Below the pieces are notes generated by a model, which had not been told where the DNA came from, made no database searches, and saw only the letters and a list, made by a program, of their open reading frames with translations. Both the position numbers and the translations under genes were made by a program. From Promethearchaeota archaeon (GTDB lineage Archaea > Asgardarchaeota > Lokiarchaeia > Sigyniarchaeales > SOKP01), in the NCBI GenBank assembly GCA_016840085.1, contig JAEOTA010000071.1:1-10758 (forward strand): a stretch of 10,758 bases of DNA, in the 5' to 3' direction. Shown here piece after piece: positions 2,216 through 10,758 of this stretch (its first letter is position 1; every line of letters starts with the position of its first letter).

Positions 2216-3364
2216 TTAAAACCCTACTATATTCGAATGGGAAAAAGTCTTATCTGAATCTACAGCATCTTGTACATAAGGAGAGATAGGTCCATTTGCT
2301 AACACCATAATTTTTATCTTAGATCCCATATCTGGTTTGTTTTGAACTCCAAATTTTAATTGAGCTTCTTCTGGTATTCCATCTGTAATAGTAGAAATAA
2401 TCTTATCTACTTTGGATAAAGGTAAACTATGATCACCGGTAACTGACACAATACATCTCTGAACTTGACTTGTATCTGGTTTTAAAAGTGGATTATTCAA
2501 TGCTAACTTTGATTTTTCTACTAAATCCGAATCATCTCCTATTGATTCTGCAATGCCAACTAGACCTGTCGGATAATTTTCTCGCTTTACAAATATTCTT
2601 TTCACATCAGCAAAATCAATATTAACTAAACCACAATTATTAATTAAATTAACTACTTCTCCAATATTTCTAATTAAAACTTCATCCATTATTTTAAATC
2701 CTGTTATCATTGGAATTTTACCGACAATTTCCAAAAGATTGTCATTAGGAATGGGTATGAGAAAATCAGAATTACTTGCGAGACTTCTAAGACCTTCTTT
2801 TGCTCTTACAGCTCGTTGAGTGCCTTCCGATTTAAAAGGAAGGGAACAAAAAGTAACAACGATAGCATTATTTCTTTTTGCCTCTTCAGCGATAATTGGA
2901 GCTGCTCCAGTCCCAGTACCTCCACCCAAACCACATGTTAAAAAGATTATATCAGCACTTAAAATTTCTGCCAATCTTTTTTTATCTTCTAAAGCAGCTT
3001 CTGCACCTACACTAGGGTCATTTCCTGAGCCTAATCCATTACATCTTTCTTTTCCAATTAAGATTTTATGTTTTGCATTCGAATAGTATAAATCATGGGC
3101 ATCAGTATTTATATTTACAGTTTCAGCATTATTTATACCCATGTCCTCTAATCGTGATATTGTATTATTCCCAGCACCTCCAACTCCAACAACCAATGAT
3201 TTAATTTTTAAAACTTTTAATAAATCTGCTAAATAGCTATCATCATCGCATTTTGGATTTGAATTAGGATTTCGATTAGCATCAGCTATTTCATTGAATC
3301 TTTCCCTCACTGATGATCGATTTTTAGCTAATTTTGCTAAATCAAAAAGTTCATCAACACTCAT
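2216..3364 (-). CDS. ftsZ: Cell division GTPase FtsZ (archaeal FtsZ1-like)
   Basis: Contains VVGVGGAGNNTI, NTD, GLGSGNDP, the tubulin signature GLGGGTGTG, PFKSEG..R, IPND and an intact T7 loop GLVNIDFADV. The N-terminal DDDSYLADLL helix resembles archaeal FtsZ1. Confidence 0.97.
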   Translation of the reverse strand: MSVDELFDLAKLAKNRSSVRERFNEIADANRNPNSNPKCDDDSYLADLLKVLKIKSLVVGVGGAGNNTISRLEDMGINNAETVNINTDAHDLYYSNAKHKILIGKERCNGLGSGNDPSVGAEAALEDKKRLAEILSADIIFLTCGLGGGTGTGAAPIIAEEAKRNNAIVVTFCSLPFKSEGTQRAVRAKEGLRSLASNSDFLIPIPNDNLLEIVGKIPMITGFKIMDEVLIRNIGEVVNLINNCGLVNIDFADVKRIFVKRENYPTGLVGIAESIGDDSDLVEKSKLALNNPLLKPDTSQVQRCIVSVTGDHSLPLSKVDKIISTITDGIPEEAQLKFGVQNKPDMGSKIKIMVLANGPISPYVQDAVDSDKTFSHSNIVGF

Positions 3365-6945: not shown

Positions 6946-8082
6946 TTAATATTTGGAAGGAGTTTTAGTTTTAATTTGTGAGGGAGCCTTCGTTTTAATC
7001 TTTCTTAGTTCTCTTTCAAATTTTCTTTTTTCATTTAGAAATCTTTGTTTATCCTTTTCTAATTTTTCTCTCTCACGTTTAATAAAGTTTTTTTCTCTTT
7101 CTAAGTTTGTTTTTTCTTTTTCTAACTGTCTATATTCATTATTTAATTTTTTAAATTTTTCCTCTAAATTTGGAATTTTGCGAGTTAAGGAGTTATATTT
7201 ATTTTCGGCAGCAGGGACTTTTCTTTCTATTTCTTTTAATCTTGCTTCTTGTTGTCGTCTTCTTTTTTCCAAATTACTTACGTCGCTTTCTACTTTATCT
7301 TTATACTTTTTTAGATCTGCTTTTTTCTTATCAATTTCGCGAGTTTTTAGATCTAAGTCTTGTTTTTTATAACGTGTTTTTTCTCTTGCTTCTTTTAATT
7401 TTCTCTTTTCATCAGAAATTCGATTTTTTTCATCTGAAATCTCTCTCTTTAGGTTATTTATTTCCCTATTTAAGTTATCCCTTTCTTTAATTAAATCTTT
7501 AATTTCATTTCTTAAATCCATTAATTTATTTTCCAAATCATTAATAGTTCTGTTCAAAGCTTCTTCTCTTCTTTCCATTCCCGGAAATTTTGTTTTAATT
7601 TGCTTGATGCGGTCTTCTGTTATTGTTTTTTCCTTATCGAGTAATTTTTTCTCGTTACCAATATCTTCTCTGAGTTTATCTAATTTCTCTCGAAATCTTT
7701 CTAATTCAGCATTTTTTTGATCTAATTCATCATTTTTTCTTCTGATTTTATCTCTGAATTGTCGTTCTTTAGTAGCAAGTTGATTTTTATGTTGTTCAAT
7801 TTGATTTTTCGCTATTTTTAATTCATCCTGTAAGATATCCCTTTTTTCAAGAAGGTATTTAACTTCAAGTTCTTTTTCTTTTCTTTTTTTTTCAAGGTCT
7901 TCAATGTTGTCTTTATAATCTTGAAGCTGTTTAAGAACTTTTTCCCATTCACTCTTTTCTTTATCTAATTTGATTCTTTCTTTTTTTATTTTTTTTAGTA
8001 ACTTTTTATTAGAAAGTGTTTCAATTTCCTCATCAGGTGTTTTTTCTTGAATTTGATATTTGGGAAGAGGTTCATCATTCAT
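6946..8082 (-). CDS. Long Lys/Glu/Arg-rich coiled-coil protein of unknown function
   Basis: 378 aa, nearly continuous heptad pattern, with no ATPase motif, TM segment or signal peptide. Stops 11 nt before the nucleotidyltransferase start. Confidence 0.8.
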   Translation of the reverse strand: MNDEPLPKYQIQEKTPDEEIETLSNKKLLKKIKKERIKLDKEKSEWEKVLKQLQDYKDNIEDLEKKRKEKELEVKYLLEKRDILQDELKIAKNQIEQHKNQLATKERQFRDKIRRKNDELDQKNAELERFREKLDKLREDIGNEKKLLDKEKTITEDRIKQIKTKFPGMERREEALNRTINDLENKLMDLRNEIKDLIKERDNLNREINNLKREISDEKNRISDEKRKLKEAREKTRYKKQDLDLKTREIDKKKADLKKYKDKVESDVSNLEKRRRQQEARLKEIERKVPAAENKYNSLTRKIPNLEEKFKKLNNEYRQLEKEKTNLEREKNFIKREREKLEKDKQRFLNEKRKFERELRKIKTKAPSQIKTKTPSKY

Positions 8083-8299: not shown

Positions 8300-8689
8300 A
8301 TGGGATTTGATGATGAGTTTGATGAGGAATTTGATGAAGAATTAGACGAAGATTTGGATGAGGAATTAGATGAACCTTCTTCAAAGACACCAGAAGAAGT
8401 AGTTGAATCTAAAACTCCAGCCACTAGAATAGTTACTGAGGGGAATAAGATTTCCGTATACTTTATGTCGACTATTGGACCGGGTGAAAAAAAACAAAAA
8501 TTAAATGTAAATACAGGTAATAACGTGGGAGACGTTAAAGAAACGGTAGCAAATTTATTTGGATTAGATCCTGCTGATTTTCATTTATCATCAGGGGGAG
8601 TTACAATGGATGAGAGCTCAGTTTTAAAAGATTATAATATAAGTGATGGTGACGATATTCTTTTAATTCCAGCAAGTACAGCGGGTTAA
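8300..8689 (+). CDS. Ubiquitin-like (beta-grasp) protein with acidic N-terminal extension and C-terminal Ala-Gly (Ubl-A)
   Basis: The last 65 aa align without gaps to ubiquitin 12-76 with 15 identities by manual count (L15,V17,V26,K27,G35,P38,L43,G47,L56,D58,Y59,N60,I61,L69,G76), e.g. LKDYNI vs LSDYNI. About 50 aa of acidic, probably disordered N-tail. Confidence 0.88.
   Translation: MGFDDEFDEEFDEELDEDLDEELDEPSSKTPEEVVESKTPATRIVTEGNKISVYFMSTIGPGEKKQKLNVNTGNNVGDVKETVANLFGLDPADFHLSSGGVTMDESSVLKDYNISDGDDILLIPASTAG
8306..8377 (+). repeat. Six imperfect 12-bp coding tandem repeats
   Basis: tttgatgatgag/tttgatgaggaa/tttgatgaagaa/ttagacgaagat/ttggatgaggaa/ttagatgaacct encode FDDE FDEE FDEE LDED LDEE LDEP. 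Confidence 0.85.
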
Positions 8690-8738: not shown

Positions 8739-9533
8739 TTAGCTTTTTTCTTTCCTTGAGGGAATTAGAGCAATTTCATCATCATCATCGATATCATAAT
8801 CTTTAATAAGTGAGTTTTCATCTAAAATTATCCCTCCAGAAGAAAGTAGAAAAGTTTTTAGTTCATAATCAAAGAATCTGCTAATCTTCTCTTTGATTAT
8901 ACCTGCTACTTCACTAGTATCAATTATAATTATTTTTGTTTTCTCACCAGGTTCAACGAGTGATCTAATATAAACTCGGATTTGATCTTCAATTTTAGTA
9001 GAGCTCAGAACTGGTGAATAAGTAATTTCTTCATCAGTTTTATCTTTATTTTTCAGCATCTTTTCTATTATTTTATTTCTCTCATTTGGATCAAAGTAAA
9101 GCATTTCCCGGATAAATAAAATCTTGTCCATTTTTGATAAGTCTAGTAAATTTATTTTATTTATTTCGTCTTGACTAAAAACTGAAAAAATATATTTTTC
9201 AATTATAGGTATATCCTTATAAGATTCATCTGATTCAACATAATCTTCAATTAAAGGCATGGCATCAATATAATCTTCAATAATATTAGCTGATTTCATT
9301 TTAATTGATATTGTTTCAGGTAAAATTTTTTTTTTATTTATTTTCTCATCCCAAATACCTTTAGAATGTATAACTGTATATACAGTACTAGTAGAGAGTA
9401 ATGCAACACTACCTATAGTTAGAATGAGAAATATTGAATTATTTTCTATGCGAAATAGGAAAAAAAAGGTATAAATCACGACGCAAAAAGTGTAAAGAGC
9501 AATAAGGCTTAAAATTCTATTTTTTTTCCTCAT
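8739..9533 (-). CDS. Two-TM membrane protein with C-terminal ubiquitin-like domain lacking the terminal Gly (Ubl-M)
   Basis: Basic N-terminus MRKKNR, two hydrophobic segments (about aa 7-27 and 34-55) and a helical middle domain. The last 80 aa (8739-8981) align ungapped to the Ubl-A domain at 32/79 identities (PGEK, LSSGG, DE, KDY, LIP). Ends SRKEKS. Confidence 0.85.
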   Translation of the reverse strand: MRKKNRILSLIALYTFCVVIYTFFFLFRIENNSIFLILTIGSVALLSTSTVYTVIHSKGIWDEKINKKKILPETISIKMKSANIIEDYIDAMPLIEDYVESDESYKDIPIIEKYIFSVFSQDEINKINLLDLSKMDKILFIREMLYFDPNERNKIIEKMLKNKDKTDEEITYSPVLSSTKIEDQIRVYIRSLVEPGEKTKIIIIDTSEVAGIIKEKISRFFDYELKTFLLSSGGIILDENSLIKDYDIDDDDEIALIPSRKEKS

Positions 9534-9618
9534 GATTTTTTAATTAGATCATTTTCTGAATTTAAAATATATAATTTAAAATTTAAATGGGATTGGAATG
9601 AATATGAAGTTTTTATAC

Positions 9619-10290
9619 TCATACACCTTGAATTAATTTTCTAACCTTTGTATATTTCTTTGTGTTAAATATGAATAATTTTCTTTTATTATCTTTTTCA
9701 ATTTTTACTAAATTCAGATCTTTTAAGATATCTAAATATTTTTTAATCGTATTATGATTCTTTTTTAAACCAGCCGCTATTTCTGTAATTTTTAATGCTT
9801 TGTTTTCTTGCTTCATAAAATCAATTATTTTTTGAAGGATTTTTTTCTTTAAATAATAGTATAACTCGTCAAACTTAGGATTTGAATCAAATTTGAAGAA
9901 AATTCTATGATTGTTTATTTGTTTTGATCTAACAAATTGGAATTTTTCTAAACATGATAAATGCCATAAAGCTTGATTACTTCCGATATTTAGAGTATTC
10001 ATTATTTCATTAATATTTGAGGGATTCTTCTTAATGTAATTAAAAATCTCATTTCTTTTTGGATGTTCGATAATATTATTTTTCATTAATCTTGTACCAG
10101 GGATAATAACACGCTGTTTAATTAAATCCTTTAAGATTAACTCTATTCGATTCTCATTTATATTAGGATTGTATCTCACTCTATTATTTATAAATGATAT
10201 AATTTCTCTCAATGAAAAGAAGGTCTTTTTCGTTAAATACTCTTCTACTAATTCAAGAACAACTGATTCTGCATTATCCAGAGAACTCAT
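9619..10290 (-). CDS. Multi-winged-helix transcriptional regulator (ArsR-like repeats, COG3398-like)
   Basis: Two clear wHTH units (HPKRNEIFNYIKKNP..INEIMNTLNI...ALWHLSCLEKFQFV and KIIDFMKQ...ITEIAAGLKKNHNTIKKYLDILKDLNLV) and a probable third N-terminal one (FSLREIISFI...IELILKDLIKQRVI). Confidence 0.85.
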   Translation of the reverse strand: MSSLDNAESVVLELVEEYLTKKTFFSLREIISFINNRVRYNPNINENRIELILKDLIKQRVIIPGTRLMKNNIIEHPKRNEIFNYIKKNPSNINEIMNTLNIGSNQALWHLSCLEKFQFVRSKQINNHRIFFKFDSNPKFDELYYYLKKKILQKIIDFMKQENKALKITEIAAGLKKNHNTIKKYLDILKDLNLVKIEKDNKRKLFIFNTKKYTKVRKLIQGV

Positions 10291-10445: not shown

Positions 10446-10473
10446 TGGCTTGAAAAACTTCAAAATCATGCCA
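10446..10473. promoter_or_regulatory. Candidate operator: imperfect inverted repeat tggcttga-N12-tcatgcca
   Basis: 8-bp arms with one mismatch, relatively GC-rich, in the divergent intergenic region between the wHTH gene and Ubl-B, directly before an aagggttttattatat TATA-like element. Confidence 0.3.
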
Positions 10474-10563
10474 AAGGGTTTTATTATATCTTTTTAATGC
10501 GATTTTATTAAGTAAAAAAAAATAGAACAAAATAAAAAATAACAGAAAAAAGAAGTGTTTTGA

Positions 10564-10758
10564 ATGAGTTTTGATGAATTTGATGAGGATTTAGGTGGGG
10601 AGGAACCTTTAAAATCTAAAACTCCCGCTACTAAGACCCCTTCCGCAGGAAAAAAACTTACTTTATATTTCATGTCAACGATTGGTCCTGGTGAAAAAAA
10701 GGAAAAATTAACAGTTAATGACAGCAATCAGGTAAGAGATATTAAACAAACTTTAGGC
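10564..10758 (+). CDS. Second ubiquitin-like protein, paralog of Ubl-A (Ubl-B), truncated by the window end
   Basis: Not in the ORF track. Manual translation: MSFDEFDEDLGGEEPLKSKTPATKTPSAGKKLTLYFMSTIGPGEKKEKLTVNDSNQVRDIKQTLG. 29/48 identical to Ubl-A from SKTPAT on, including an identical YFMSTIGPGEKK. Confidence 0.9.
   Translation, partial: MSFDEFDEDLGGEEPLKSKTPATKTPSAGKKLTLYFMSTIGPGEKKEKLTVNDSNQVRDIKQTLG

Follow-up and report, generated by a model that had tools for sequence, protein, structure and literature searches.

Introduction

Two questions about Asgard archaea, by what route their large surface proteins pass on signals and in what manner and when their ubiquitin-like systems come into play, are both touched by a single locus of a Promethearchaeota archaeon in which a membrane protein fused to a ubiquitin-like (Ubl) domain, here TM-Ubl, is encoded beside a triple winged-helix regulator (wHTH) and two free Ubls. 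What would such a fusion do? The original prediction, made from this DNA, offered two roles: an adaptor analogous to the eukaryotic proteins HERP, TMUB1 and UBXD8, or a membrane-bound partner of the co-oriented wHTH. We refer throughout to the window, the whole stretch analyzed, which comprises 10,758 nucleotides of contig JAEOTA010000071.1 (assembly GCA_016840085.1); its features are collected in Table 1.

Table 1. Features of the window (position 1 is its first nucleotide), followed by related modules and proteins listed by locus or protein identifier
Feature	Position	Strand	Remarks
TM-Ubl gene	8739..9533	-	264 aa; TM hairpin, domain X and non-conjugatable Ubl
TM1 / signal anchor, residues 8-27	9453..9512	-	Hydropathy, modelled helix, charge bias
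TM2, residues 34-55	9369..9434	-	Most conserved region of TM-Ubl (87%)
Domain X, residues ~80-165	9039..9296	-	Mobile cytoplasmic helical domain with three-helix core; predicted wHTH binder
Ubiquitin-fold domain, residues 182-259	8757..8990	-	Paralogue of free AG-ending Ubls
Basic tail in place of terminal Ala-Gly	8742..8756	-	R260 and K261 at least 90% conserved
21-bp element before TM-Ubl	9593..9613	-	59 nt before TM-Ubl start, just upstream of TATA-like box
Triple winged-helix regulator (wHTH)	9619..10290	-	223 aa; predicted partner of domain X; candidate binder of 21-bp element
21-bp element, second copy	10454..10474	+	Upstream of TATA-like box of Ubl-B operon
Ubl-B	10564..10758	+	Cut by contig end; first gene of Ubl-E1-E2-JAB-multi-TM RING in relatives
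Ubl-A, free AG-ending Ubl	8300..8689	+	Tail-to-tail with TM-Ubl; upstream region without 21-bp element
Modules with second short wHTH	L106, L108, L121, L122, L123, L125		
AG-ending Ubl fusions and tandems	L072:5621-6454(-), L073:5850-6674(-), L076:7557-8237(+), L082:9691-11448(-), P0141, P0152, P0169		

A conserved membrane protein carries a ubiquitin fold without a conjugatable end

Hydropathy places two hydrophobic segments at residues ~8-27 and 34-55 of TM-Ubl with a loop of 5-6 aa between them, and structure prediction models this hairpin as helices spanning residues 3-26 and 32-56. Across 58 homologues, Lys and Arg together average 3.5 before TM1, 0.5 in the loop and 7.0 after TM2, and these basic-residue counts show a predicted N-in/C-in topology in which both termini are cytoplasmic and the protein continues in the cytoplasm after the hairpin. 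Estimates of dN/dS for the TM region are noisy (0.39-1.2). We rejected the idea that the N-terminus is a cleaved signal peptide: no cleavage motif with small residues was seen by eye after TM1, and the objection is moot because TM2 alone would anchor the protein and leave its C-terminus in the cytoplasm.

The C-terminal domain (residues ~182-259) aligns with Ubl-A at 39% identity over 97 aa (E 3e-20) and matches Pfam PF00240 at 9e-5, below the gathering cut-off; this weak match was the only one in Pfam, and an NCBIfam search of TM-Ubl returned none. Its model (pLDDT 78-92; TM ~0.85 to ubiquitin-fold chains) has the beta-grasp ubiquitin fold of conjugatable (type I) modifiers, whose C-terminal Gly is missing: TM-Ubl ends SRKEKS, the family end is IPSR-K plus a basic tail, and this tail stands where free Ubls have Ala-Gly in all 38 orthologues, so that E1 should be unable to activate the domain. 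The original prediction of an integral membrane protein with two N-terminal TM helices and a cytoplasmic, non-conjugatable Ubl about 40% identical to Ubl-A thus agrees with each of these analyses. Identity to the free Ubls is otherwise only ~33%, and the values for Ubl-A (34%) and Ubl-B (32%) do not discriminate between them as parent; the domain has kept the fold of the free Ubls and several of their surface motifs, with the tail replaced and no KTP motif.

Of 36 other genomes in the genus, 33 contain the whole fusion at 52-92% identity; it is also present in three further genera of the same family and was not found in 26 searched genomes of other families. Its homologues are labelled Promethearchaeota or Lokiarchaeota, and full-length ones come only from Lokiarchaeia-type genomes. 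Among the ways in which it could fail, the original prediction had named absence from related genomes and an assembly chimera. The latter was rejected on this conservation across genomes and genera and on a raw-data contig, possibly from the source sample, that spans the gene with zero mismatches; a single RNA run, uninformative on expression, lacks coverage of it. These genome comparisons confirm TM-Ubl as a real, conserved Lokiarchaeia (Promethearchaeia) protein. As it is confined to part of one family, it is a lineage-specific invention and no direct ancestor of eukaryotic ERAD adaptors.

Could the Ubl be a passenger, a neighbouring Ubl accidentally fused to an anti-regulator made of TM hairpin and domain X and serving only as a stable cap? 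A Ubl-less form (P0149) exists and this Ubl family fuses to many other domains, as such an accident would have it. Set against this, the Ubl part is 83% conserved across the 58 homologues with many invariant residues, its dN/dS of 0.25-0.39 against three orthologues indicates that it is under purifying selection, it has been retained in four genera, and the regulon of the module appears to be the Ubl operon itself (see below). We therefore think a passenger very unlikely.

Domain X is a mobile domain that travels with wHTH genes

The segment between hairpin and Ubl had been described as a helical linker domain. It is helical, as stated, but longer than the stretch then quoted, and it is a recognizable mobile domain, which we call domain X. 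We traced it with residues 1-172 of TM-Ubl alone and with a profile run against 1.8 billion representatives. Domain X forms the C-terminus of many single-pass surface proteins of 400-2000 aa whose unrelated ectodomains are of beta-helix, WD40, FG-GAP, LamG or Ig types; some of them contain two copies of it or a zinc finger ahead of it, and in its minimal, Ubl-less form (P0149) it follows a TM hairpin in a protein encoded downstream of a wHTH. It comprises ~85 aa, with a predicted three-helix core (pLDDT ~90) and a less certain N-terminal half. No Pfam family was common to more than 7 of 80 members, and no solved fold matched. A UBA or CUE identity would imply a Rad23-like shuttle; none appeared among the top structure matches, the best of which (Z 5.7) were generic bundles, and profiles gave it no support. 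Atlas searches also returned no match, which is uninformative.

Two further features of these surface proteins were observed. The TM helix preceding their domain X resembles TM2 of TM-Ubl, and an eight-ligand cytoplasmic zinc finger often precedes domain X (P0165, P0173, P0195, P0217; L102, L104). Considered as possible RING E3s, the zinc fingers beside X show a weak likeness to the operon RING, with an hhalign probability of 85% over 34 columns, and have only weak B-box or ribbon matches in Pfam.

To sample wHTH neighbourhoods independently of X we took the next 40 wHTH paralogue loci by rank, leaving out X-selected loci and orthologue fragments. A co-oriented X gene lies within 800 bp of the wHTH in 32 of the 40, about half of these 32 fall in one partner group of ~440 aa, and five of the eight misses are at contig ends. 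In the source genome the only X gene adjoins the only full-length wHTH of this type; with a single X gene, chance adjacency is negligible. The wHTH and X trees have a deep split and most supported subclades in common, a congruence expected from physical linkage alone. The X partners form nine clusters, which yield a weak mirror correlation (rho 0.24, Mantel p 0.05), and the higher value over all pairs (rho 0.78-0.79) is discounted as relatedness. The wHTH matches HTH and winged-helix families only and no sigma-70 family, and the modules are recurring adjacent, co-oriented pairs with variable sensor domains. Searched alone, then, the supposed linker proves to be joined to many surface proteins and to co-occur with this wHTH family. 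Some modules contain a second, shorter wHTH gene (135-190 aa) between the regulator and the surface protein, abutting the start codon of the latter (Table 1).

Co-folding of the wHTH with domain X gave an ipSAE of 0.79; of three controls, the best reached 0.01. Its contacts agree at least 93% between runs, with a partner pLDDT of at least 84. Of 80 solved pairs, 58 reached the co-fold mark, as did 2 of 110 mismatched ones, figures that are rough with our own alignments. In the model, X residues 115-118, including F116, pack on the strands of the first winged helix, and F140 and M159 of X pack on W109 of the wHTH, within residues 103-117, which by HTH anatomy we take to be the recognition helix of the second winged helix. 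The top contact residues (W109, F140, M159 and F116) are invariant or nearly so in their families, and a search by sequence found no similar complex in the PDB. X is thus predicted to cover the DNA-reading helix of the wHTH, a geometry that supports binding without showing it. Gene pairing, congruent trees and the passing co-fold strongly favour the second of the two roles first proposed, that of a membrane-bound partner of the wHTH, and we consider it highly probable that domain X binds it.

Binding need not be inhibitory. Domain X could instead act as a co-activator or scaffold at the membrane, holding the wHTH and drawing the promoter there while the third winged helix, which the model leaves free of contact with X, binds DNA. 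Archaeal membrane-bound transcription regulators are widespread according to the available text of PMC10269533, and in paralogue L155 the wHTH itself is fused to TM helices, both of which are in keeping with such a scaffold. In the model, however, the second winged helix has its recognition helix buried, invariant W109 included, and the promoter element found before the partner gene (see below) would fit negative feedback better, making a scaffold unlikely. Judging from position, the interaction probably inhibits the wHTH.

The pair adjoins an Asgard conjugation operon

Gene order is nearly fixed in ~40 related loci: RING, JAB, E2, E1 and Ubl-B lie on one strand, wHTH and TM-Ubl diverge from them, and Ubl-A converges on TM-Ubl. 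In this assembly the JAB and RING genes begin another contig (C13), and no E1 or E2 orthologues of the Ubl-B operon were found in it, which is consistent with a gap between the contig end and C13. Catalytic motifs are intact in every copy checked (E1, 32/32; E2, 30/30; JAB, 22/22), and 26 of 27 operon RING proteins match the RING pattern. The RING-like domain has Glu at ligand six and is fused to ~five TM helices; this multi-TM protein (L033:702-1859(-); C13:754-1935 in the source genome) has full-length relatives across the Asgard phylum, drew no Pfam match at full length and is a candidate membrane E3. Since the operon occurs in many Asgard families without the wHTH/TM-Ubl pair, the pair is a later add-on and not core machinery.

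Several observations concern the surroundings of the operon. KTP motifs number 1.6-1.7 per protein in the N-tails of both free Ubls and 2.7 at the ends of a neighbouring coiled-coil protein, against a genome-wide background of 0.16 per 1000 aa; TM-Ubl has none. The coiled-coil gene (6946-8082(-)) also adjoins the Ubl operon in other families. KTP is a candidate acceptor-lysine or phosphorylation motif and the coiled-coil protein a candidate substrate. An FtsZ-family GTPase with an N-terminal extension (2216-3364(-)) is usually syntenic with the locus. Elsewhere the source genome encodes two more Ubl-B paralogues with the promoter element described below (C18:1793-2128 and C18:16345-16673), one broken by a stop and a frameshift, and a separate E1 and E2 pair (C78:52476-56941). 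A simple pattern search of it for canonical GG-ending ubiquitin returned only a SAMP/MoaD-like ORF at C19:88703.

In related loci, AG-ending Ubls follow other domains in fusion proteins (roadblock-like, zinc-ribbon, longin-like, vWA and ATPase, as judged by eye) or form tandem di- and tri-Ubl precursors (Table 1); all keep the Gly, and some of the fusions could be conjugated as whole proteins. In genus g27 (L115, L166, L167, L168) a second Ubl locus beside the wHTH/TM-Ubl pair consists of a Ubl and a soluble RING protein of ~220 aa without TM helices, and the complete operon sits elsewhere, without the 21-bp element. In other genera a protein of ~690 aa with a RING-type motif is encoded near the operon (L158:6769-8817(-), L160, L164, L165).

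A multi-TM RING protein revives the first role proposed, in the form of an ERAD-type adaptor whose Ubl would recruit Cdc48 or PAN to that ligase, with domain X a mere spacer. TM-Ubl appears to be co-regulated with the operon that ends in the RING-like protein, the genome encodes Cdc48- and PAN-like ATPases (by motif), and TM2 is highly conserved, as such an adaptor would predict. It would, however, leave unexplained the association of X with wHTH genes in Ubl-less modules; the RING protein extends across the phylum, whereas TM-Ubl is confined to one part of a single family; and the conserved neighbours of TM-Ubl include no AAA or proteasome gene. The suggested likeness to HERP, TMUB1 and UBXD8 gained no positive support, as neither a UBX domain nor homology beyond the ubiquitin fold was found, and we judge an adaptor of this kind improbable.

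A shared promoter element links TM-Ubl to the operon

A 21-bp element with the consensus AAAACTTCAAAATCATTCCAA is followed after ~5-7 bp by a TATA-like box; it precedes Ubl-B in 36 of 36 loci and TM-Ubl in 28 of 37, in the latter case standing 56-59 nt from the start in all but one locus. With element and TATA-like box directly upstream of its start, TM-Ubl would have its own promoter. With a matrix built from Ubl-B sites only, the regions upstream of TM-Ubl reach 11.0 and shuffles -17.8 +/- 1.0, and the best four matches genome-wide precede TM-Ubl, Ubl-B and the two Ubl paralogues. The element score stays at background (-12.5 to 2.1) for 19 operon promoters without an adjoining wHTH/TM-Ubl pair. 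The six loci outside the genus that have the pair score 14.7-19.7 ahead of the Ubl and 7.1-26.6 ahead of TM-Ubl; the 99th percentile of the null is 8.1. One genus has the element beside the pair at a second Ubl locus, and there both copies are altered together in the last bases. Related elements precede the X genes of seven wHTH-first paralogous modules (5.6-13.0; null 95th percentile 4.5) and, by eye, the Ubl-less TM-hairpin and X gene downstream of a wHTH; most X-first modules have no clear element. In one short-contig genome (G072, 90% complete) the element precedes the operon and no wHTH orthologue was found. These positions make the wHTH the best candidate binder of the element, and we think it quite likely that it acts there. 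Archaeal activators such as TFB-RF1 recruit TFB to weak promoters from a like position (PMC5937170).

Co-induction with the conjugation enzymes through this element would also suit a decoy or brake like eukaryotic MUB, in which the Ubl would bind E1, E2 or JAB and damp conjugation at the membrane, whether or not X holds the factor. The free-Ubl fold and several surface motifs are kept and the tail is replaced by one in which R260 and K261 are conserved, in keeping with a decoy. The distance from the free Ubls and the lack of KTP tell against it, and domain X is left unaccounted for. As the principal function a decoy seems distinctly doubtful; as an extra role it is compatible with TM-Ubl being an anti-regulator.

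Discussion

Our findings suggest, with a probability that we put at roughly 60%, that TM-Ubl is a membrane-tethered anti-regulator of the wHTH that controls the Ubl operon. On its sequence, the TM hairpin anchors the protein and leaves the remainder in the cytoplasm, where domain X is predicted to grip the first winged helix of the wHTH and cover the recognition helix of the second; the bound wHTH would be kept at the membrane and off DNA, a step that is predicted and has comparative support. Free wHTH would bind the element near the TATA-like box and turn on both the Ubl-E1-E2-JAB-TM-RING operon and TM-Ubl, whose induction would close a negative feedback loop.

What would release the captive factor? 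Sibling modules would sense through extracellular domains, and TM-Ubl has no ectodomain and carries a Gly-less cytoplasmic Ubl instead. Because a copy of the regulated operon's own modifier replaces the sibling ectodomain, the simplest input would be the state of the ubiquitin-like system, sensed by way of Ubl turnover or binding. The Ubl could then be a tag within the protein, or a docking site, that lets the conjugation or degradation machinery remove or remodel the inhibitor, so that the wHTH is set free. That the factor is sequestered at the membrane, that it activates the operon and the inhibitor gene once released, and that the Ubl is the input are all inferred; the role of the Ubl as feedback input, whether as degron or as sensor, is a candidate that we rate slightly below an even chance, and the full feedback version of the circuit is more tentative. 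We would advance with similar reserve the hypothesis that Lokiarchaeia possess an undescribed, kinase-free class of transmembrane signalling in which sensor, TM helix and domain X hold a captive wHTH, one member of which has been rewired to the ubiquitin-like system.

The locus names a binding domain, its partner, the interface, a DNA site and a target operon, all of which can be tested with small soluble proteins. If the anti-regulator reading holds, it would define a family of anti-sigma-like modules in archaea and provide a regulatory entry point to an Asgard ubiquitylation operon that includes a membrane RING protein. In the full feedback version, turnover of the inhibitor would depend, via its built-in Ubl, on the state of conjugation or the proteasome, a prokaryotic analogue of Rpn4/Nrf1 feedback and of ubiquitin-dependent release of membrane-held transcription factors.

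Eukaryotic membrane proteins with an integral UBL or UBX domain include HERP/HERPUD1, TMUB1/2, Usa1, Dsc3 and UBXD8. Like these, TM-Ubl is predicted to join a membrane anchor to a cytoplasmic, non-conjugatable ubiquitin fold, and it would be linked functionally to a membrane RING ligase, here via a shared promoter element. It differs in having no homology to them beyond the fold, in having its Ubl at the C-terminus, copied from a local modifier, and in a predicted transcription-factor-binding domain that the HERP group lacks. MUB proteins are single-domain and lipid-anchored through a C-terminal Cys motif. TM-Ubl resembles MUB/UBL3 in presenting a ubiquitin fold without a GG end at the membrane, but it is multi-domain and TM-anchored, with a basic tail that contains no Cys.

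Archaeal Ub-E1-E2-RING-Rpn11 operons are known from Caldiarchaeum (PMC5654768) and Helarchaeia (10.1101/2023.07.25.550441), as is a separate Ub region of Lokiarchaeota (PMC9192718), and the available text of these accounts mentions neither a regulator nor TM-Ubl. The Ubl-B operon has the same gene set with intact catalytic motifs; as apparent differences, its modifier ends in Ala-Gly and has an acidic, KTP-bearing N-tail, and its RING is fused to TM helices with Glu at the sixth ligand. A literature search, with most subscription papers and supplements outside its scope, turned up no paper on the fusion, domain X, the wHTH/TM-Ubl pair or the 21-bp element. In Pyrococcus furiosus, the HTH activator TFB-RF1 (PF1088) binds just upstream of a weak BRE and TATA and switches on the operon in which it is encoded; its companion there, PF1089, is a membrane protein of unknown function with four TM helices and no reported inhibitory role (PMC5937170). 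The wHTH is alike in that its element lies upstream of a TATA-like box and its gene adjoins a membrane-protein gene; the TFB-RF1 site is palindromic and the 21-bp element is not, and the likeness drawn here is one of position.

Bacterial ECF sigma factors and their membrane anti-sigma factors form pairs such as RseA-sigmaE, RsgI-SigI and CarR-CarQ, in which release is signal-dependent and usually proceeds by proteolysis. These pairs (PMC8103513, PMC9732909) are among the closest known systems. As with them, domain X and the wHTH are an adjacent pair with paralogues that bear variable sensor domains and show apparent autoregulation, and a small cytoplasmic domain following the TM helix would, on the prediction, hide the surface with which the partner binds DNA. 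Unlike in those pairs, an archaeal triple winged-helix factor takes the place of the sigma factor, no Pfam family or solved fold corresponds to domain X, and TM-Ubl carries a cytoplasmic Ubl in place of an ectodomain. By this analogy, TM-Ubl would work like a bacterial anti-sigma factor without being one.
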